A DNA stretch of 64,000 bases from Escherichia phage vB_EcoM-LTH01. Below are positions 2,051-45,398 of the stretch, in pieces (position 1 is the stretch's first letter; each line of letters begins with the position of its first letter). The DNA is taken from sequence record PP430345; one strand, given 5' to 3'. The translations under genes and the position numbers were made by a program. Under the pieces are notes generated by a model that was not told the origin of the DNA, did no database searches, and saw only the letters and a program-made list of their open reading frames with translations.

Positions 2051-2655
2051 TCAAGAAGTTTGTTGCTTGGGTAAAATCGCTGTTTATTCCTCTGGAAGTA
2101 GAAACTGCGGCGATCGACAAGTATATTGCAAAGCAGGCCGAACAGCGTAAGGAGACTGAAAGCGTTAAATTCGGCCCAGTTGAAACACGCGATCTGGAAG
2201 AACCATTAAAAGAAAATGAGGTATTGGTTGGGGTAAACATCAAAGATAAGACGATGAAGGTTGTTGATATCTCTGTTGAACGACCAAAATCACAGGCTAC
2301 GCCGCCGAAACCGTTGGATGAACAACTGAAGGGTGTTGAATTACCGTCCTATGCTCAAGGTAAGAAATTACCACCGAAGGCAAAGCGACAGTATATTGAT
2401 CAGGCCCGTCGGGCAGCACCACGTAAGATGAGCGACTCTCCAAATGGGTATGGAACTAGCCAGGTTGATCCTCAGGTGGCAGCTTTAGGTGGTGTGGCAA
2501 CGTATACTGCTGTAATGTCCTCCAGTGAAGATCGTACAAGTAGTTCAAGTTCTCACTGTTCTTCAAGTCGGTCAAGTTCGTATGATAGCTCATCATCGTA
2601 TGATAGTTATTCTTCTGATAGTAGCAGCAGTAGTTCTTCAAGCAGTTGTGATTGA
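2047..2655 (+). CDS. hypothetical protein with Ser-rich low-complexity C-terminal tail
   Basis: ORF track; last ~45 aa are mostly S/D/Y. Confidence 0.5.
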   Translation: MIKKFVAWVKSLFIPLEVETAAIDKYIAKQAEQRKETESVKFGPVETRDLEEPLKENEVLVGVNIKDKTMKVVDISVERPKSQATPPKPLDEQLKGVELPSYAQGKKLPPKAKRQYIDQARRAAPRKMSDSPNGYGTSQVDPQVAALGGVATYTAVMSSSEDRTSSSSSHCSSSRSSSYDSSSSYDSYSSDSSSSSSSSSCD

Positions 2656-2722
2656 TATTTAAGAGAGGGGCCGAAAGGCTCCTCACATCGGGAGTAAGAG
2701 TTTTAATTAGAGGAGTGATGAA

Positions 2723-3124
2723 ATGCGTAAAGTATACCCTAAGAAGCCAAATGCCACTAAAACCCCACGCTACGGTTCTGAAGAATGTCCGCGAATCACG
2801 GATGAAGAATCTCGTATCGTTAAGGAAAATTTTGCAGAAATATTTTTGTTTGGTCCCACTAATAATGATCCGTACACTCTGTTGGCTGAACGTTTAGGCT
2901 CAGATCGCAATCGAGCAAAAACTGTATACTATGCTTGGGTTTATCGACAGAAAGGTCATTATTTTCGTCATGTTACTCGGGAGCGTCAAGTTCGTTCACG
3001 TTTAGTCTGTCGTATCAAAAAGTACACAGAATTCTTAAACAATCCAGAAACTATCTATCAGATTATGTGTCGTGCAGAAGATGAGGTTGACGAACTGATT
3101 GCTAAGGGGACTATCAAACAATGA
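2723..3124 (+). CDS. hypothetical protein
   Basis: ORF track; GAGGAG RBS upstream. Confidence 0.45.
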   Translation: MRKVYPKKPNATKTPRYGSEECPRITDEESRIVKENFAEIFLFGPTNNDPYTLLAERLGSDRNRAKTVYYAWVYRQKGHYFRHVTRERQVRSRLVCRIKKYTEFLNNPETIYQIMCRAEDEVDELIAKGTIKQ

Positions 3125-3272
3125 TGATTTCTCCAGAGATTTTTGTAACGTTTTTCATTATGGTTTCTCTTGCAGGATCAAGGTTTTTACCTTTCAACGT
3201 ACTAAGTGCGACATGGTTCATACTTGGGACAATATTTGCAGTAGAGACTACAAAATATTTTGGAGGTAGCTA

Positions 3273-38870: not shown

Positions 38871-40358
38871 TTATCGTCTATACCTGGAATACATCGTAGG
38901 GGCGTGAGGTCGTGGTATTGGAACAGCACGGACAATTTCTGTTTTCTCCAGATAGTTAATACCCGAAGAGATGGCATCCACCCAGTCGTCCTTACGTGAT
39001 CCAGTTGACCTCTCGCCGTCGAAAGATTCAAGTTCCTTCAATAAAGCTTCTAATGTGTCCACAGGGAAAGATTTCTCAACAATCCGTACAAATCCGTTCT
39101 GTGCTAAGTTAGCGAACGGAGAGAAGCGTACAAGCTTCTTTTTGTTACCTGGTGTTGGGTCTTTCTCAACCATGAACCCTTGATTCAATAACTCACGAGA
39201 AGATGTAGTAAATTCGGATAGACCTGCTTGACCAGGGTCAACAGGGAAGATGATCCTAACGTCATCTCCGTCATGTATTGCCTGTTTAAGAATAATCTTG
39301 TCACGCTCACCTGCTTTTTTGCAGAAGCGTCCGGCTTGTCCAGTGGACCAATCGCCAGTATCAACGAATTCATCACAATAATCACCGAACAGGTAGTAGA
39401 ACCCATCCTGATCTCGCGCTACACCTATACCTGCCGTGAAGTCAGGTGTTTTGTTACCTGTGGAACGCTCTGTACCTGCTTTATCGTAAGATCTAACCTT
39501 GTCGCAATTAAGCGGGAGATGATCTACATTTTTGAGGAAAGAACGTTTAAAATAGTTTGCACCCTGCGGACGAGCATCCCAGTTACCATGAAGAAGTCGT
39601 GCACGGTCAACCTCGTTAAGACCTTCCAACTGAGCAAGGTATTCGGGGTTGTTGATAAGCATTGGCGGGTTGTCATAAATAGTGGAAGATATGAATGTGA
39701 ACGATACGGGCTTACATTTCTTACCATAACGTTTCTTCAACTCCTCTACTGAGTCTCCCCACATGTATTGGTCATCCACACGGACGAAATAACGAATAAC
39801 TCCGTCTTTTTCAGGATTAGGATAGCCATCCTTATCGAGATACCAGTCAACCATCTTACGAAGGTAATGATCAGGATCAGGGTTGCAACTTATTACCATA
39901 CGGGAAGGGTATTTTGAGTTTGAACGCAAACGGGACATCATATATTCCAACTGTTCCCATTCGAACTGTGTTCCTTCGTCAACTCCGATAAAGGTAAACT
40001 CCAATCCCTGAATATCGAATTTATCGCTTACGTGTTGCATAGACTGCCATTTAACGGTAGCCCCGTTAGGAAATGTTGCAGTCATTTCATTTTCTTTAAA
40101 CTTAGGCTTAACTACCGGAGGTAGTTGGTTGTAAATATCCTTAGCTTTGTCGAACAAACCACCTTGTCCACGAATCTGAGGGACGGTACGACGGAACATG
40201 ATACATGCTGTTCTGGGGTCGTTTACAATCAACAAAGGCATCAACTGGAGCAGGTAGGACTTACCTGATCCTGCTGCACCACCTATAACCATTATTTGTG
40301 CGTCAGATTCGAGAACCATTTGTTGCTTTCGACTCGCTGGTGCGAATGTAGCAGACAT
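38871..40358 (-). CDS. terminase large subunit
   Basis: Walker A GGAAGSGKS near N-terminus, Walker B-like FIGVDEGTQF, C-terminal nuclease-sized domain; first gene of head module. Confidence 0.85.
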   Translation of the reverse strand: MSATFAPASRKQQMVLESDAQIMVIGGAAGSGKSYLLQLMPLLIVNDPRTACIMFRRTVPQIRGQGGLFDKAKDIYNQLPPVVKPKFKENEMTATFPNGATVKWQSMQHVSDKFDIQGLEFTFIGVDEGTQFEWEQLEYMMSRLRSNSKYPSRMVISCNPDPDHYLRKMVDWYLDKDGYPNPEKDGVIRYFVRVDDQYMWGDSVEELKKRYGKKCKPVSFTFISSTIYDNPPMLINNPEYLAQLEGLNEVDRARLLHGNWDARPQGANYFKRSFLKNVDHLPLNCDKVRSYDKAGTERSTGNKTPDFTAGIGVARDQDGFYYLFGDYCDEFVDTGDWSTGQAGRFCKKAGERDKIILKQAIHDGDDVRIIFPVDPGQAGLSEFTTSSRELLNQGFMVEKDPTPGNKKKLVRFSPFANLAQNGFVRIVEKSFPVDTLEALLKELESFDGERSTGSRKDDWVDAISSGINYLEKTEIVRAVPIPRPHAPTMYSRYRR

Positions 40359-40458
40359 AATTCTCCTTTAGTTCTTGACTTGAACTGATAAAAGGTATAT
40401 TACCATAAAAAGGATAAAAAATAAAGGCCAATGCATAAAAGCACTGACCTTGTCAACA

Positions 40459-40758
40459 TTATTTGCAGAACTCTGGTGGATTTTCTTTAAAAATATTACA
40501 AACGTAGGTCTGTAATCCTTCAGCACGTCTTTCTATTCTTGCAGCACGAAGATTGTTATGACTAAGAACGTCAGCAACAGTTGTCTTTGCAGAGCGTTTT
40601 TCCATAACCAGCTTAGGACCTTCTTTCTTCATAAGTTCAAGATCCGGCTTTTCGATCAGCTTTTCTATCTTAACTTCTTCAGTAGGACCACAAATTTCTT
40701 TACTCTGACAACCAACAAGACCAAAACAAAGGATAATTCCGGCGATAATCTTCTTCAT
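40459..40758 (-). CDS. outer-membrane lipoprotein, o-spanin-like
   Basis: MKKIIAGIILCFGLVGC has signal peptide plus lipobox; several Cys; start overlaps stop of upstream TM/coiled-coil gene. Confidence 0.45.
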   Translation of the reverse strand: MKKIIAGIILCFGLVGCQSKEICGPTEEVKIEKLIEKPDLELMKKEGPKLVMEKRSAKTTVADVLSHNNLRAARIERRAEGLQTYVCNIFKENPPEFCK

Positions 40759-41117
40759 TATTCCCCCAGTGATTTGTTATAGATATCAACTATCTCATCA
40801 TCCATAAATATTTCTTGTCCCTTTTTAGATTTTGCATAGTCGATTCTCATTGCCTCTACTTCATCACGTAATTTTTCCTCAGCGATGATCCGTTTTGCAT
40901 TTGCATAAGAAAGTTCTTCATTCAATCTCTTATTCTCTTCCAATGTAGAGTCAAGCTTTCCTTTGTACTCAGTAGCTTTCTTTATCCAAGCCGTGTTTGC
41001 AGCATCGTAGCCTTTGTCATATCCCACAGACTCAACGTGTCCGAGATACAGTTTTCCAGAAGTAAATAACGCAACGCCGATCATTGCGTAAATGAAATAT
41101 TTTTTAGCGGGTAACAT
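40758..41117 (-). CDS. inner-membrane coiled-coil protein, i-spanin-like (start at internal ATG 41117)
   Basis: AAGGAGGA RBS 7 nt before ATG (MLPAKKYFIY...); N-terminal TM then coiled-coil; upstream ATG 41174 would fall inside a terminator. Confidence 0.45.
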   Translation of the reverse strand: MLPAKKYFIYAMIGVALFTSGKLYLGHVESVGYDKGYDAANTAWIKKATEYKGKLDSTLEENKRLNEELSYANAKRIIAEEKLRDEVEAMRIDYAKSKKGQEIFMDDEIVDIYNKSLGE

Positions 41118-41154
41118 ATAAATCCTCCTTTTGGATATTTTATCACCGAAATCA

Positions 41155-41186
41155 CAAATAAAAAAGCCTCCCAAATGAGGGAGGCT
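41155..41186 (-). terminator. intrinsic terminator ending the tRNA operon
   Basis: Hairpin GCCTCCC-TCATTT-GGGAGGC followed on minus strand by TTTTTTATTTG. Confidence 0.6.
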
Positions 41187-41234
41187 GAGGCGAAGGAGAG
41201 GAGATTATATTATTGTTATTATATGAGGGTAAAT

Positions 41235-41309
41235 TGGCTGGGGATACTGGACTCGAACCAGTGAATGTTGGAATCAAAATCCAATGCCTTACCGCTTGGC
41301 TAATCCCCA
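41235..41309 (-). tRNA. tRNA-Gln (anticodon TTG)
   Basis: Manual cloverleaf: 7-bp acceptor, anticodon arm TTGGA-TTTTGAT-TCCAA, T-arm ACTGG-TTCGAGT-CCAGT, encoded CCA; close to E. coli tRNA-Gln. Confidence 0.8.
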
Positions 41310-41317
41310 TTTTTGTT

Positions 41318-41393
41318 TGGAGCGGATAACGAGACTCGAACTCGTGACATTCTGATTGGAAATCAGAAGCTCTACCAACTGAGCTATACCCGC
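41318..41393 (-). tRNA. tRNA-Gly (anticodon TCC)
   Basis: D-arm GCTCAGTTGGTAGAGC, anticodon arm TCTGA-TTTCCAA-TCAGA, T-arm ACGAG-TTCGAGT-CTCGT, CCA encoded. Confidence 0.8.
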
Positions 41394-41398
41394 ATATT

Positions 41399-41475
41399 TG
41401 GTCGGTGTACGAGGATTTGAACCTCGAACCTAATGCTCCCAAAGCATTCGCGCTACCAAGTTGCGCTATACACCG
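41399..41475 (-). tRNA. tRNA-Pro (anticodon TGG)
   Basis: Anticodon arm AATGC-TTTGGGA-GCATT, T-arm CGAGG-TTCAAAT-CCTCG, CCA encoded. Confidence 0.8.
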
Positions 41476-41479
41476 TATT

Positions 41480-41560
41480 TGGCGTGAAGGTGAAGAGTCG
41501 AACTCCTTACGACTGGTTTTGGAGGCCAGCTTGCCACCGTGACAATTATGTTACCCGCAC
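41480..41560 (-). tRNA. tRNA-Trp-like (anticodon CCA), atypical 5' half
   Basis: Anticodon loop CTCCAAA and T-arm GGAGTTCGA resemble tRNA-Trp, but acceptor pairing needs a mismatch and the D-arm region is ~5 nt too long. Confidence 0.4.
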
Positions 41561-41569
41561 ATTAATTTG

Positions 41570-41642
41570 GTTTCCGTACTGGATTCGAACCAGTATCACA
41601 ACGAGACGTTGCGGGAATCTTATCCTATAAGCCTAACGGAAA
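41570..41642 (-). tRNA. tRNA-like element, possibly non-functional
   Basis: Perfect acceptor (TTTCCGT/ACGGAAA), U8-A9 and T-arm ACTGG-TTCGAAT-CCAGT, but anticodon-position hairpin has a 3-nt TCT loop on a 7-bp stem. Confidence 0.3.
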
Positions 41643-41645
41643 ATT

Positions 41646-41732
41646 TGGTGCATTGTGATGGAGTCGAACCACCCGAGTTCTATGAACAGCAGATTTACAG
41701 TCTGCCCCGCTACCCCTACGGTCTAACAATGC
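41646..41732 (-). tRNA. tRNA-Tyr (anticodon GTA), long variable arm
   Basis: Anticodon arm GCAGA-CTGTAAA-TCTGC identical to E. coli tRNA-Tyr; variable arm GTTC-ATA-GAAC; perfect 7-bp acceptor; CCA encoded. Confidence 0.8.
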
Positions 41733-42040
41733 CTTATCCTACGGTCACACAAGTCTGACCATCTATCTCTGAGCAAGGGATTTCAAAATGTCTCCCGTCC
41801 CCAAATACATCTCGCCACATAGTCTATTCGGAAGCGGGAGTCTATGCACACCCCTTGCGGTAAGTGACCTCACTTTGAGATCAGCATCTTCCTTATTCGA
41901 CGAGTTAAATTCTCTTTAAGGTAGCCAGTGTTCGCAGCACTAACTATGAGGTATCCGTAAGATGATTTCAGTCATCTACCGAAAAATTACACCAAGCAAC
42001 TACCTTAAAGAGAACTTCTTAGTAAAGGCCCTTGCGAGCC

Positions 42041-42415
42041 TTAATCTTCACCTTCTGCCATTTTATACTCACGAATCTGAGTAGTTAATGGAATAGCATC
42101 TTTAAATGCATCAGAAGGGCCTTGATGAGTTTCTGAATTTGCAGAAGTAGTTCCTCCTGCCAGATCCTCTTCATTATCTTCCATTGTGTACAGATTGTTT
42201 GCCTTTTCAGCTTGCTCAAGAATATACTTCGCAGTAGTTTCTTTAACTTTCTCTGTACCGGAAGTCAGTAGACCTTCCAGAGTTTTAATTGCTTGAGGAG
42301 TAAGTCTTGCAAACTCGGAACGAGCATGAAGAATTGCTCTCTCAGTATTGATTGCAATGCTTTCCTCTGTAGTAGGCCGACCGCGTTTTCGAGTAACGAT
42401 TTCAGCTTTAGCCAT
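42041..42415 (-). CDS. hypothetical early protein (basic N-terminus RKRGRPTTEE, acidic C-terminus)
   Basis: ORF track 42041-42421; ATG 42415 preferred (GAGG + 5-nt spacer); promoter-like hexamers just upstream. Confidence 0.45.
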   Translation of the reverse strand: MAKAEIVTRKRGRPTTEESIAINTERAILHARSEFARLTPQAIKTLEGLLTSGTEKVKETTAKYILEQAEKANNLYTMEDNEEDLAGGTTSANSETHQGPSDAFKDAIPLTTQIREYKMAEGED

Positions 42416-42442
42416 AAACACCTCAATTCAGTCGATATAACT

Positions 42443-42471
42443 ATATTAGCAGTATAATAGGATTATGTCAA
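42443..42471 (-). promoter_or_regulatory. putative sigma70-like promoter (TTGACA-17-TAATAT)
   Basis: Consensus -35 and 4/6 -10 read on minus strand upstream of the 42415 start. Confidence 0.4.
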
Positions 42472-42607
42472 GAACTTATTGAAATGTATTAAGAAATGAA
42501 ATGGGGGTGCGCCGTTTCTGCTGTAATCTACGTCGTTATCGTTGAGGGAACTCGTAGTCAGGGAACATCAGTCCGACGACTTATCGGGAGCGACCCGACT
42601 TCTTATG

Positions 42608-42682
42608 TGGTGGCCCTGGGTGGAATCGAACCACCGTCTGGCGATTATGAGTCGCTTGCTTGAACCGTCCAGCTACAGGGCC
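42608..42682 (-). tRNA. tRNA-Met (anticodon CAT; initiator vs elongator vs tRNA-Ile2 not resolved)
   Basis: Perfect acceptor GGCCCTG/CAGGGCC, anticodon loop CTCATAA, T-arm GGTGG-TTCGATT-CCACC, discriminator A, CCA encoded. Confidence 0.75.
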
Positions 42683-42701
42683 TGTATTTAAAAGAACTTA
42701 G

Positions 42702-42780
42702 CGCGGGAGGAAGGACTCGAACCTTCATACTCCAATTACTCGATTAACGACGGTTTAGAAGACCGTTGAGATACACCCGC
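42702..42780 (-). tRNA. tRNA-Arg(TCT)-like element with non-canonical architecture
   Basis: T-arm GAAGG-TTCGAGT-CCTTC and perfect hairpin ACGGT-CTTCTAA-ACCGT, but the hairpin sits at the D-arm position; no canonical cloverleaf found. Confidence 0.3.
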
Positions 42781-43093
42781 GCTAAATTCTCTTGTGGGTG
42801 GTGACAGGTTTTGGATATTTAACGACAGGATAACCTTAAACCTCGTCATCATGACAAGGGGTACACCGTAAAAGATTGTCGTGGTATTAAAACTATAATG
42901 ATCCGTGGATCACTAATCAGACGATCTTCGACGGCTCCCCGATATACACAGGGATGGACTGGGCATCCCATTTAGTCGCAGTCAACCAAAAGCGTAAATC
43001 GCGGCGGTGGTATATTGGTTCCAACATATATTTATCCACCCAGCCTTCAAGATGACTAATCTCTCAGGCAACAAAATAATCTTACATATTTAA

Positions 43094-43276
43094 TCAGCTA
43101 TTGTCAACAGGTTTTTTACCATTAATGCAGAGATTACACATCACTGATCTCTTTGGTCCTAAAAACCTGTAACCGCAAACAAAACACTGACAAGTGTAGC
43201 CTTTTTGTTTTTCATGGTTGCGAGGATCATCGAAACTTAGAGATTCAAAGGTCTGGTCTTTCATCATACATCCCAA
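43094..43276 (-). CDS. small zinc-ribbon-like protein (CQCFVCG ... CNLC)
   Basis: ORF track; two Cys pairs. Confidence 0.4.
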   Translation of the reverse strand: MGCMMKDQTFESLSFDDPRNHEKQKGYTCQCFVCGYRFLGPKRSVMCNLCINGKKPVDNS

Positions 43277-43371
43277 TTCTCCTCGTTAATAATTCCTTCT
43301 CCGAATCCTACGAAACCATCAAATTCGTCTTTCATTAACCTTCTCCGTATCCAATCATGTATCTTCTCCTA

Positions 43372-43590
43372 TTACAGTTTAACAACACTAACGCTAAAGC
43401 CAGGTATGGTTTTACACTCAGCTTCCATAGATTCAAGAGTCCCTTCAACAAGTTCTTTTTCTACAGCTTCGAAAATCTCTTCGATGCTCAAGCCGGACTT
43501 TTCCATCTTAGCTTTTAACATCTCTTCCATATCTTCGTTAGTGTAGTCAATTTCATAAGTAACCTTGAGTTCTACAACCTGTTTAGTCAT
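43372..43590 (-). CDS. small acidic protein (paralog A)
   Basis: 72 aa, E/D-rich; shares pattern with adjacent 74-aa ORF. Confidence 0.45.
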   Translation of the reverse strand: MTKQVVELKVTYEIDYTNEDMEEMLKAKMEKSGLSIEEIFEAVEKELVEGTLESMEAECKTIPGFSVSVVKL

Positions 43591-43807
43591 TGGCGATCTC
43601 CGAAACGGTAACTTCAGTAGTTAACCCAGGGAATTCTGAATCATCATTAGGGAACTGTTCTACAAACCCCTCAAGAAATTGCTGCGGGAATGTCTTGTAG
43701 AGTTCTTCAACTGTAATACCTTGACGCTCAGAAGCTTCTTTCATTTCTTTGCTAAGAGCTTCATTAGTCTTATCTACGGTAAAGTTCAATGTAATGCTAA
43801 ATTTCAT
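43583..43807 (-). CDS. small acidic protein (paralog B)
   Basis: 74 aa, E/D-rich; overlaps neighbour by 8 nt. Confidence 0.45.
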   Translation of the reverse strand: MKFSITLNFTVDKTNEALSKEMKEASERQGITVEELYKTFPQQFLEGFVEQFPNDDSEFPGLTTEVTVSEIAND

Positions 43808-44052
43808 TTTGCCTCCATAAAAGTCATCTTGTAACGAGAAGTTAAGTCACCCTCGTTGGGGTAGAAGAAGTATATTCGATTTCCTTTCCCAAAGTCAATC
43901 TTTTTCCAACACTCCAGAGAAAACCCTGTAGTCTCAAAAGCAATGTCGTTACCCTCATCGAAAGCTTCATCATAGCTGTTAAAGGTATCGATATACTCTT
44001 CCGTTACGTATCCAGCAGCACCGTATTCCAGTGCAAGTTTAAAGTTTTTCAT
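43804..44052 (-). CDS. small acidic protein
   Basis: 82 aa, acidic/aromatic; translationally coupled. Confidence 0.45.
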   Translation of the reverse strand: MKNFKLALEYGAAGYVTEEYIDTFNSYDEAFDEGNDIAFETTGFSLECWKKIDFGKGNRIYFFYPNEGDLTSRYKMTFMEAK

Positions 44053-44110
44053 ATTAGTTAACCAGTCAAATAAAAGTATACCTCCATTTTACTGGCATAA
44101 CCAATGATAG

Positions 44111-44356
44111 TCAATGTAACTCAAGCGATTGAAGAAGTCCAGAAATTTCTTCTTCAAGTTTAGACTCTATTTGAATCTCCTTACATGGAATCATAAACTC
44201 TGGAACCATATCGGCATAAACTCTCTCAGAAACGATTTGAGCGTTCATTGCACTCCAGTCAAGAAAAGACATGACTTCATCTGTTTCTTTCATGAGAGAG
44301 CTTCCTATTGCGTTTAAACGGCATTCTGAAACCTGATTCACGATTACCTCCATCAA
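44111..44356 (-). CDS. hypothetical protein
   Basis: ORF track; overlaps upstream stop. Confidence 0.4.
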   Translation of the reverse strand: MMEVIVNQVSECRLNAIGSSLMKETDEVMSFLDWSAMNAQIVSERVYADMVPEFMIPCKEIQIESKLEEEISGLLQSLELH

Positions 44357-44739
44357 TATCCGTACTTCTCTTTAAGTATTGGGTCGTTAACCACAATGTA
44401 ATGACGTGGTTTCGACTTCCCGTTGATTATCACCTTATCTCTGTAAATCCTGATGTAACCGCCAGTCTCCATCTTCTTAAGGAATGCACTTACCTTGGCT
44501 TGACTGGTCGGTGACATTTGAAACAACTCACACAATGCCACCTGTGATTCATAGAAACACGTTTCCACTGATTCGCCCTGTCGAGAAGCAAACTCCGCAA
44601 AGAATGAAAATCTCCACCTCAAAAGTATCATCCTCTTTAAATCCTCGCCGGACATTTCAGTAACCCAACGAAGAGGAAGCATGGCGAACGCATCGTCTTC
44701 AAAAGTCTTCTTCCCAACAGAGGTGTTTATCTCAAACAT
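44353..44739 (-). CDS. putative winged-helix DNA-binding protein (first gene of leftward early operon)
   Basis: C-terminal SQAKVSAFLKKMETGGYIRIYRDKV resembles a wHTH recognition helix plus wing; AAGAGGAGG RBS; adjacent to repeat-rich control region. Confidence 0.4.
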   Translation of the reverse strand: MFEINTSVGKKTFEDDAFAMLPLRWVTEMSGEDLKRMILLRWRFSFFAEFASRQGESVETCFYESQVALCELFQMSPTSQAKVSAFLKKMETGGYIRIYRDKVIINGKSKPRHYIVVNDPILKEKYGY

Positions 44740-44767
44740 AGACCCTCCTCTTAATCTTACCTTCGCT

Positions 44768-44795
44768 ATCTTACATGACTATCCCAACATGTCAA
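44768..44795 (-). promoter_or_regulatory. putative leftward early promoter (TTGACA-16-TAAGAT)
   Basis: Read on minus strand upstream of the 44739 start. Confidence 0.35.
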
Positions 44796-44879
44796 ACCCT
44801 TTATGCCCGTTTAGGCATACAATACTATATTAGATTTCCCTGGCTCGAAGCCTCTCGCCAAACCCTTTATCATTATAAT

Positions 44880-44929
44880 TTATTCATTTCATTCATAAAT
44901 TATATAATAATTATTCATTTCATTCATAA
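44880..44929. repeat. two copies of 19-bp direct repeat TTATTCATTTCATTCATAA separated by 12 bp
   Basis: Exact copies at 44880-44898 and 44911-44929 in AT-rich intergenic DNA. Confidence 0.7.
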
Positions 44930-44953
44930 TTATTATTAAAAACAATAAAAACA

Positions 44954-45022
44954 AGATCTTTTATAAGATCTTTTTATATATATGATCTATAGATCTACAG
45001 ATCTTAAAGGATCTTTTATAGA
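44954..45022. repeat. GATC-dense repeat block (6 GATC in 60 bp; AGATCTTTTATA-like unit x3)
   Basis: AGATCT at 44954, 44966, 44991, 44999; GATC also at 44984 and 45010. Confidence 0.7.
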
Positions 45023-45052
45023 TTTTATACTAAATTTTTTAAATTTAAAGTC

Positions 45053-45081
45053 TTGACATGGAGTTTTTACATAGGTATAGT
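45053..45081 (+). promoter_or_regulatory. putative rightward early promoter (TTGACA-17-TATAGT)
   Basis: Hexamers read upstream of the 45117 gene. Confidence 0.45.
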
Positions 45082-45116
45082 GACTCTACTTTAACAAACA
45101 ACAGGTTATCTTTATA

Positions 45117-45398
45117 ATGATTTTGAATAATAAATGTAAAAAGTTATCAGAGAATGAATTAAGTCATCTTCAAGCTATGAGAGAAGCTTGGCATTCAGCA
45201 AAAGCTGGACTGAAAGTATGTGTTGTGACTGTTTACGAATGTGACTGGTACACCATTTTGGGGAACTATTACGGAGTAATGAATCAGTATGTGGAAAAAG
45301 GCTTGATTTATCATCGTGTGGAAGATAGTATGAATCCTGACTTACAGCTTGTGGCTGAAGATTTGGATAATGTACTAATAACTTTGGAGATGATCTAA
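45117..45398 (+). CDS. hypothetical early protein
   Basis: ORF track; first gene after divergent promoter. Confidence 0.45.
   Translation: MILNNKCKKLSENELSHLQAMREAWHSAKAGLKVCVVTVYECDWYTILGNYYGVMNQYVEKGLIYHRVEDSMNPDLQLVAEDLDNVLITLEMI

Follow-up and report, generated by a model that had tools for sequence, protein, structure and literature searches.

Three consecutive genes on the minus strand of Escherichia phage vB_EcoM-LTH01 (sequence record PP430345) encode small acidic proteins of 82, 74 and 72 amino acids (aa), here called C82, B74 and A72 (positions 43372–44052 of the 64,000-nucleotide (nt) stretch that was analysed, hereafter the window). We tentatively favour, at a little under an even chance, the view that they are accessory factors, made early and translated together, that bind host proteins. 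An earlier note on this sequence had suggested that they are DNA mimics directed against restriction, a proposal that gains no support from the present analysis. C82 belongs to a family that is core to the Vequintavirinae, while A72 and B74 are lineage-restricted paralogues of one another.

Three overlapping genes under purifying selection

The open reading frames (ORFs) run in the order C82 (43804–44052), B74 (43583–43807) and A72 (43372–43590), confirming the earlier description of three consecutive coupled ORFs. Adjacent genes overlap by 4 nt, with the B74 start codon lying over the C82 stop codon (ATGA), and by 8 nt between B74 and A72 (ATGACTAA). The start codons of both B74 and A72 have GGAGG or GGAG directly 5′. 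At the DNA level the region is 94–96% identical to phages A5-4, A7_1, A73, W70 and UPEC06, members of the Vequintavirinae described as genus Septuagintavirus (PMC11370258). The window thus comes from a phage of the Septuagintavirus type. The counterparts of all three genes are labelled ‘hypothetical protein’ throughout the records of these phages, and the A72 sequence matches a hypothetical protein of vB_EcoM-LTH01 at 100% identity.

Ratios of non-synonymous to synonymous substitution (dN/dS) were calculated against A5-4 and UPEC06 by the Nei–Gojobori method and counted only where substitutions sufficed, giving a range of 0.04–0.2. The values were 0.04–0.07 for A72, 0.10–0.12 for B74 and 0.09 for C82; such low ratios identify all three as genuine protein-coding genes under purifying selection. 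Synonymous divergence is unevenly spread, with an unusually high dS for A72 (0.55–0.85 against A5-4 and UPEC06), a dS of 0.40–0.43 for B74 against UPEC06, and only 0.01–0.05 for the upstream gene E128 (44353–44739). This unevenness over 1.4 kb suggests recombinational mosaicism centred on the A and B genes.

A72 and B74 form an ancient paralogous pair

Alignment of A72 with B74 yielded 24% identity and 56% positives over 63 ungapped residues (BLASTP, pairwise E = 1e-10). The Smith–Waterman score of 95 was not reached by any of 5000 shuffles (27.5 ± 5.2; z = 12.9), while all other pairings among A72, B74, C82 and D81, a fourth small acidic protein encoded upstream, scored at chance level. The paralogy put forward in the earlier note is thus upheld: judged by sequence, A72 and B74 are true paralogues and C82 is unrelated to either. 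We found no record of this relationship in any annotation.

A72 matches the phrog_28002 profile (E = 1.2e-9), and its homologues occur in 19 phage records from the Septuagintavirus clade and Certrevirus, with 35–38% identity over 69 residues to the phrog_28002 proteins of Certrevirus (phiTE_200, CR9_277 and KaOmega gp290). No function is assigned to phrog_28002. B74 gave no significant match in PHROGs. As word-indexed protein searches with single queries returned near-identical proteins only, an alignment of concatenated C, B and A sequences was used instead. A hidden Markov model (HMM) built jointly from A and B sequences and searched against 1.84 billion representative proteins gave 23 matches, of which 19 look real, all of them 71–79 aa long. 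The other four (303–1399 aa) look spurious; of the three inspected, one is a designed repeat protein with a His tag and two are repeat proteins. The joint profile retrieves A-type, B-type and Certrevirus B′-type proteins aligned in register, and the proteins in the B position of Certrevirus (phiTE_199 and CR9_276) and of other lineages align with B74. We delimited the group by a full-length profile match, a length of 71–79 aa and a position between a C-family gene and the GYGEG micro-ORF or zinc-ribbon gene described below; A72 belongs to it by its profile match and B74 only through paralogy and the joint profile. B74 is the faster-evolving copy of the pair. Across the alignment an Asp (D15 in A72) is near-invariant, a G-x-(S/T) turn between the two helices is commonly kept and the Gly of a P-G-(F/L) motif ahead of the last strand is invariant.

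Of eight sampled lineages with A-family genes, seven (the window clade, Certrevirus and loci L016, L018, L019, L021 and L022) have B and A in tandem with their stop and start codons overlapping, and these lineages share only 25–45% identity among one another. The local duplication suggested in the earlier note is therefore real but old: on this sequence evidence it is ancient and has usually been kept.

C82 belongs to a core Vequintavirinae family

C82 matches phrog_5676 (E = 6.8e-24), the family of rV5 ORF75 (gp071), which has no assigned function. Named members include rV5 ORF75/gp071, PVP-SE1 gp92, phiTE_198 and bas54_0218. C82 shares this profile, an equal length, and a position behind a P75-type promoter and upstream of the tRNA cluster. 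It is 44–50% identical to the Certrevirus and Kashira proteins and 30% identical to the rV5-type protein (hhalign probability 96.8%). A tblastn search with C82 found 106 phage records; one with the PVP-SE1 homologue found 227, rV5 among them. The rV5-type protein is at least 99% identical across 114 Vequintavirus records. From this breadth and conservation, C is a core Vequintavirinae gene.

In an alignment of C82 with 19 homologues the invariant residues are K5, E19, D36, A38, F39, G43, L46, W49, D53, F54, G55, N58, Y61, P65, N66, E67, D69, Y74 and K75. With structural (glycine, proline, aromatic), polar and charged residues all at fixed sites, the pattern suggests a specific site more than diffusely spread charge. 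An invariant DFG-x-GN...YPNE-x-D motif marks C82 and its relatives of the Certrevirus type; the rV5-type proteins lack it.

The C gene is annotated as 97 aa, with a 15-residue N-terminal extension, in UPEC06 (locus L002, 3961–4254) and in a metagenomic cluster (protein P0003). The longer annotation runs across the conserved −10 box, and since the upstream frame in the window is shut by a TGA codon, the 82-aa form is the real C82. Separately, 18 records labelled ‘Campylobacter phage’ (MG065635–MG065677) carry a near-identical rV5-type ORF75 protein, 100% identical in the nine listed. Most of the listed records have rV5-like genome sizes and look like rV5-like coliphages under a Campylobacter label.

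Fitness data are available for an orthologue of the rV5 type, bas54_0218 of phage Bas54 (134089–134331 in the supplement, in MaxBurger; tblastn match 134089–134328, 100% identical). Transposon insertion sequencing by HIDEN-SEQ classed this gene as non-essential, with 16 of 19 TA sites hit, and gave a mean insertion count of 12.1 on E. coli K-12, against 78–140 for bas54_0214–0217 and bas54_0219 (bioRxiv 10.1101/2025.11.20.689424). Insertions are thus approximately 10-fold under-represented on K-12. Polarity on the essential gene bas54_0220 is an unlikely cause, because counts for the intervening bas54_0219 are normal. In the clinical-isolate comparison labelled K-12 versus CFE303, bas54_0218 showed no significant change (q = 0.195), and the reported Bas54 anti-defence genes, bas54_0063 and bas54_0140, are located elsewhere in the genome (bioRxiv 10.1101/2025.11.20.689424). 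A gene that is dispensable, yet depleted of insertions, suggests a factor for general fitness or host takeover and not a counter-defence tied to particular strains. Our literature search found no anti-defence assignment covering Vequintavirinae genes of the A72, B74 or C82 type.

Predicted structures

An AlphaFold2 (AF2) model of C82 built with 19 homologues was predicted with high confidence (predicted local distance difference test (pLDDT) 91.9; predicted template modelling score (pTM) 0.81) and has the order β-β-α-β-β-β. C82 is thus predicted to be a compact α/β domain. Its neighbours in BFVD were uncharacterised phage proteins only.

The AF2 model of A72, built from 17 A and B sequences, was less well determined (pLDDT 81.9, pTM 0.55), with helices at residues 19–32 and 36–59 only. 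The N- and C-terminal segments are unpaired in this model and have no secondary structure assigned, while in the A and B sequences both termini show a strand-like alternation of hydrophobic residues. The predicted architecture of the family is therefore a strand, a helix, the G-x-S/T turn, a long helix, P-G-(F/L) and a second strand. As the termini are strand-like and unpaired in the monomer model, they probably pair in a homo- or heterodimer.

Comparison of the A72 model with the PDB using Foldseek gave no significant neighbour (best E = 4.5), sequence-profile searches of the PDB returned designed repeat proteins and chance matches only, and scans of Pfam, NCBIfam, PHROGs and PADLOC with A72, B74, C82 and 28 A/B members matched only PHROGs without an assigned function.

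The predicted strand–helix–turn–helix order of A and B resembles that of ribbon-helix-helix (RHH) proteins such as CopG, Arc and the RHH antitoxins, and the top Foldseek matches of A72 were RHH or antitoxin chains, although none was significant (all E > 4, probability < 0.1). The two differ in that the N-terminal residues of A72 that alternate with the hydrophobic positions (E7, K9, T11, E13 and D15) are mostly acidic and that A and B carry an extra C-terminal strand. We rejected RHH homology, since none of the 28 family members matched an RHH family in Pfam and hhalign against CopG and Arc gave a probability below 1%.

Acidity of the three proteins

Calculated isoelectric points (pI) lie between 4.2 and 4.5: 4.37 for A72 (24% D+E, net charge −9, −0.12 per residue), 4.24 for B74 (20% D+E, −9, −0.12 per residue) and 4.49 for C82 (18% D+E, −6, −0.07 per residue). 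The earlier note had called the three ORFs strongly E/D-rich, a description that is relative: across the window the median pI is 5.26 and 17% of ORFs fall below 4.5 (n = 95, non-overlapping). The proteins are indeed acidic, but not unusually so for this phage. It is retained family-wide, with a median pI of 4.39 for A/B members and 4.21 for C members. The charge density is below that of Ocr and ArdA and near that of UGI or AcrIIA4.

A conserved host-type promoter

A σ70-type promoter (TTGACT–17 nt–TAAAAT; 44086–44114, minus strand; 10/12 in a consensus scan) lies in the 58-nt gap upstream of C82. The same arrangement, TTGAC(T/A)-N17-TAAAAT or TAAGAT, is found approximately 40–60 nt 5′ of the C start in all 14 phage loci, which span several Vequintavirinae genera, and in four further metagenomic loci (18/18 in total). 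The equivalent site in the rV5 GenBank record is labelled ‘Sigma70-type promoter; P75’. The interval from C82 to the zinc-ribbon ORF (44052 to 43094) showed no terminator-like site. Because this promoter is conserved before C, the cassette is probably transcribed early by the host polymerase; the early expression assumed in the earlier note is plausible to that extent.

Gene order and neighbourhood

The order in every locus examined is the σ70-type promoter, C, (B, A), a micro-ORF encoding (I/V)G(Y/F/W)GEG, a four-Cys basic protein and tRNAs. The NAMPT gene is directly upstream of the cassette in most genera. In the window, the gene immediately upstream of the promoter is D81 (44111–44353, minus strand), a fourth small acidic ORF (pI 4.21, dN/dS 0.15–0.20) that stands outside the paralogue pair and is weakly similar to a conserved gene 5′ of C in CR9 (E = 0.003) and L019 (E = 0.001; small database). 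In the metagenomic relative L016, an N6/N4 DNA methyltransferase gene (2529–3254) lies between NAMPT and the C–B–A cassette, another sign of a neighbourhood that gathers defence-related accessory genes. In phiTE, a pseudo-ToxI RNA that neutralizes a defence ribonuclease marks an escape locus (PMC3475682); it lies approximately 1.9 kb downstream of phiTE_198–200, in the same tRNA region. With NAMPT, the L016 methyltransferase and pseudo-ToxI, the neighbourhood in relatives appears to hold known or likely counter-defence functions, a link by association only.

Two micro-ORFs sit between A72 and the zinc-ribbon gene on the minus strand and read by direct translation as MIGYGEG (43335–43358) and MKDEFDGFVGFGEGIINEENWDV (43264–43335), each followed by a stop codon. 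The motif (I/V)G(Y/F/W)GEG(I) occurs once or twice in peptides of this type, which have E(E/N)W(G/D)V at the C-terminus, and homologous micro-ORFs are annotated at the same position in PVP-SE1 (gp91), 4MG_086, M5a_114, F1M1E and Hena1 and in loci L018, L019 and L022. The rV5-type phages have a 111-nt ORF there, a correspondence of position only. Since another frame of the window reads ...DERPDL, the C-terminus of PVP-SE1 gp91, and GGAGAAGG repeats in the region resemble ribosome-binding sites, the conserved entity could be a frameshift-prone peptide or a nucleotide element.

The cassette is closed, ahead of the tRNA genes, by a 56-aa zinc-ribbon-like protein (43094–43264, minus strand; phrog_8931, E = 2.6e-22) with a C-x-C-x2-C...C-x2-C pattern. 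With a pI of approximately 8.6, it is the sole basic protein in an acidic run. Homologues stand at the same position in Certrevirus, Seunavirus and metagenomic loci (CR9, KaOmega, phiTE, PVP-SE1, L016 and L020). Embedded among the tRNA genes is a 126-aa ORF (ORF126; 42041–42421, minus strand; phrog_3330) homologous to rV5 ORF74/bas51_0229 (27% identity, pairwise E = 2e-10). The Bas54 gene corresponding to it in position and length, bas54_0220, was classed as ‘Essential’, with 1 of 20 TA sites hit (HIDEN-SEQ, bioRxiv 10.1101/2025.11.20.689424); the tRNA cluster therefore holds an essential gene without an assigned function. Adjoining tRNA-Met, the element at 42702–42780 (minus strand) scores 35.8 bits with the Rfam tRNA model (gathering threshold 29) without an ARAGORN call, and could be either a divergent sixth tRNA or an element resembling one.

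Screening 40300–45300 for tandem repeats and for RNA elements, ToxI-like or other, gave only the tRNAs and the repeats of an AT-rich divergent intergenic region (44740–45116) between the leftward (E128...) and rightward operons. This region contains a 31-nt unit repeated 2.1 times (44867–44933) along with shorter repeats, and each strand has strong promoter-like sites. In Bas54, an intergenic region of approximately 2 kb between oppositely transcribed genes took no transposon insertions (bioRxiv 10.1101/2025.11.20.689424) and is a possible counterpart of 44740–45116.

Discussion

In the reading we favour, C82, B74 and A72 would be co-transcribed from a promoter of the host RNA polymerase and translationally coupled, at the head of a tRNA-containing region, and would act non-structurally through protein binding, not as enzymes or classical DNA mimics. 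C82 would be a core fitness or host-takeover factor, in which W49, D53-F54-G55, N58, Y61, P65-N66-E67 and D69, a motif invariant within the Septuagintavirus/Certrevirus-type subfamily, could form a binding site. A72 and B74 would constitute a small, fast-evolving, lineage-restricted pair, likely dimeric and produced in similar amounts by coupled translation. Their patchy distribution and rapid divergence fit an accessory factor with a variable host target, which may be a defence protein or one that binds nucleic acid.

Several points weigh against this reading. Homology provides no functional evidence for A72, B74 or C82, and dimerization of A and B is read from a monomer model. Start/stop overlaps are common in compact phage genomes and are no proof of complex formation. 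The case for early timing is the promoter consensus alone, and a literature search found no Vequintavirinae transcriptome covering these genes. The argument from neighbouring counter-defence genes is drawn from other genera, as the window's own upstream genes are D81 and E128, not NAMPT. The C82 motif is absent from the rV5-type subfamily; what is seen in Bas54 may therefore not hold for C82. Finally, in locus L020 C is followed directly by A, with B not present; B is thus not obligatory for A. The same locus weakens the idea of an obligate A–B heterodimer.

The DNA-mimic proposal of the earlier note, spelled out, would have one or more of the three proteins imitate the phosphate backbone with surface carboxylates and block type I or other restriction enzymes, BREX or other DNA-binding defences early in infection. 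The cassette does resemble Ocr of T7, ArdA, Arn of T4, UGI and AcrIIA4 in small size, net negative charge and a likely early host-type promoter, whereas no sequence or fold relationship to any of these was detected. Neither A72, B74, C82 nor the 28 A/B members matched Ocr, ArdA or other anti-restriction families in Pfam or NCBIfam at E <= 1 to 5, and an acidity that is unexceptional for the window does not single these proteins out. The fold searches gave no lead, and C82 is modelled as a compact α/β domain with its invariant residues at fixed sites, a pattern that looks unlike diffusely spread charge. Vequintavirinae and their relatives were described as ‘exceptionally susceptible’ to restriction–modification (RM) systems in the BASEL study (PMC8594841). 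The Vequintavirus phages tested there carry the C family without A and B; the restriction sensitivity of these C-carrying phages speaks, indirectly, against an effective restriction-blocking role of C. Their sensitivity says nothing about A and B, for which mimicry is unsupported rather than refuted; for C82 it is not supported. Overall, we regard DNA mimicry as very unlikely. A related possibility is an early acidic hetero-oligomer of A72 and B74, perhaps joined by C82, whose co-translated subunits are made in stoichiometric amounts. It would inhibit a host nucleic-acid-binding defence or nucleoid protein by serving as a nucleic-acid mimic or decoy in function, and would constitute a new inhibitor family unrelated to Ocr, ArdA or known anti-CRISPRs. 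Such a complex would lie in a Vequintavirinae counter-defence hotspot together with NAMPT, the tRNA array and the phiTE pseudo-ToxI, but we consider it unlikely.

Position suggests a different role, in which the cassette serves the adjacent tRNA array, either by protecting or assisting phage tRNAs or by inhibiting tRNA-targeting nucleases (anticodon nucleases, retron- or PARIS-type effectors) through an RNA-like acidic surface. Throughout the subfamily C is strictly linked to the 5′ side of the tRNA cluster wherever a locus reaches that far, an acidic surface would be consistent with mimicry of nucleic acids, and the same region of phiTE carries the pseudo-ToxI RNA directed at a defence ribonuclease (PMC3475682). 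This evidence is purely positional, however, and the tRNA genes of rV5 have their own annotated promoters. In the window, promoter-like sites at 43107–43079 and 42471–42443 precede the tRNA-like element and ORF126, upstream of the remaining tRNAs. Family scans found no homology to RNA-binding proteins or nuclease inhibitors, and in phage Av-05, which retains C, the 2 kb downstream contain no annotated tRNA. A role in serving the tRNAs thus strikes us as improbable, to much the same degree as DNA mimicry. The proteins might instead work inside the phage programme, as a small chaperone, an assembly factor or a regulator of phage gene expression that has no interaction with host proteins. The core status of C and its extreme conservation within Vequintavirus would fit, as would the lowered fitness of insertions in the Bas54 orthologue even on laboratory K-12 and the strand that the cassette shares with the terminase and structural genes, which lie downstream of it. 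Against this, the promoter is of host rather than late type, the C gene is non-essential (bas54_0218), and A and B are missing from most Vequintavirinae with the same virion and replication modules. The proteins are also acidic and have no DNA-binding signature. An internal role is on balance unlikely, and we return to host-protein binding as our tentative preference.

As it stands, C82, B74 and A72 are an ordinary early phage ORF cluster with a well-defined anatomy. The rV5-like phages are among the most often isolated phages of E. coli and Enterobacterales and are used in therapy cocktails, and most of their early genes are without an assigned function. The delimited, subfamily-conserved cassette (promoter, C, (B, A), micro-ORF and zinc ribbon) offers a short list for screens against defence systems by deletion or over-expression, containing a core gene whose fitness effect can be measured and a pair of paralogues restricted to some lineages. 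Because neither the A/B nor the C family has characterised relatives, any function found would define new families. If A and B, or C, prove to be defence inhibitors, they would represent new families of such proteins; otherwise, they would be ordinary early accessory ORFs of the Vequintavirinae.

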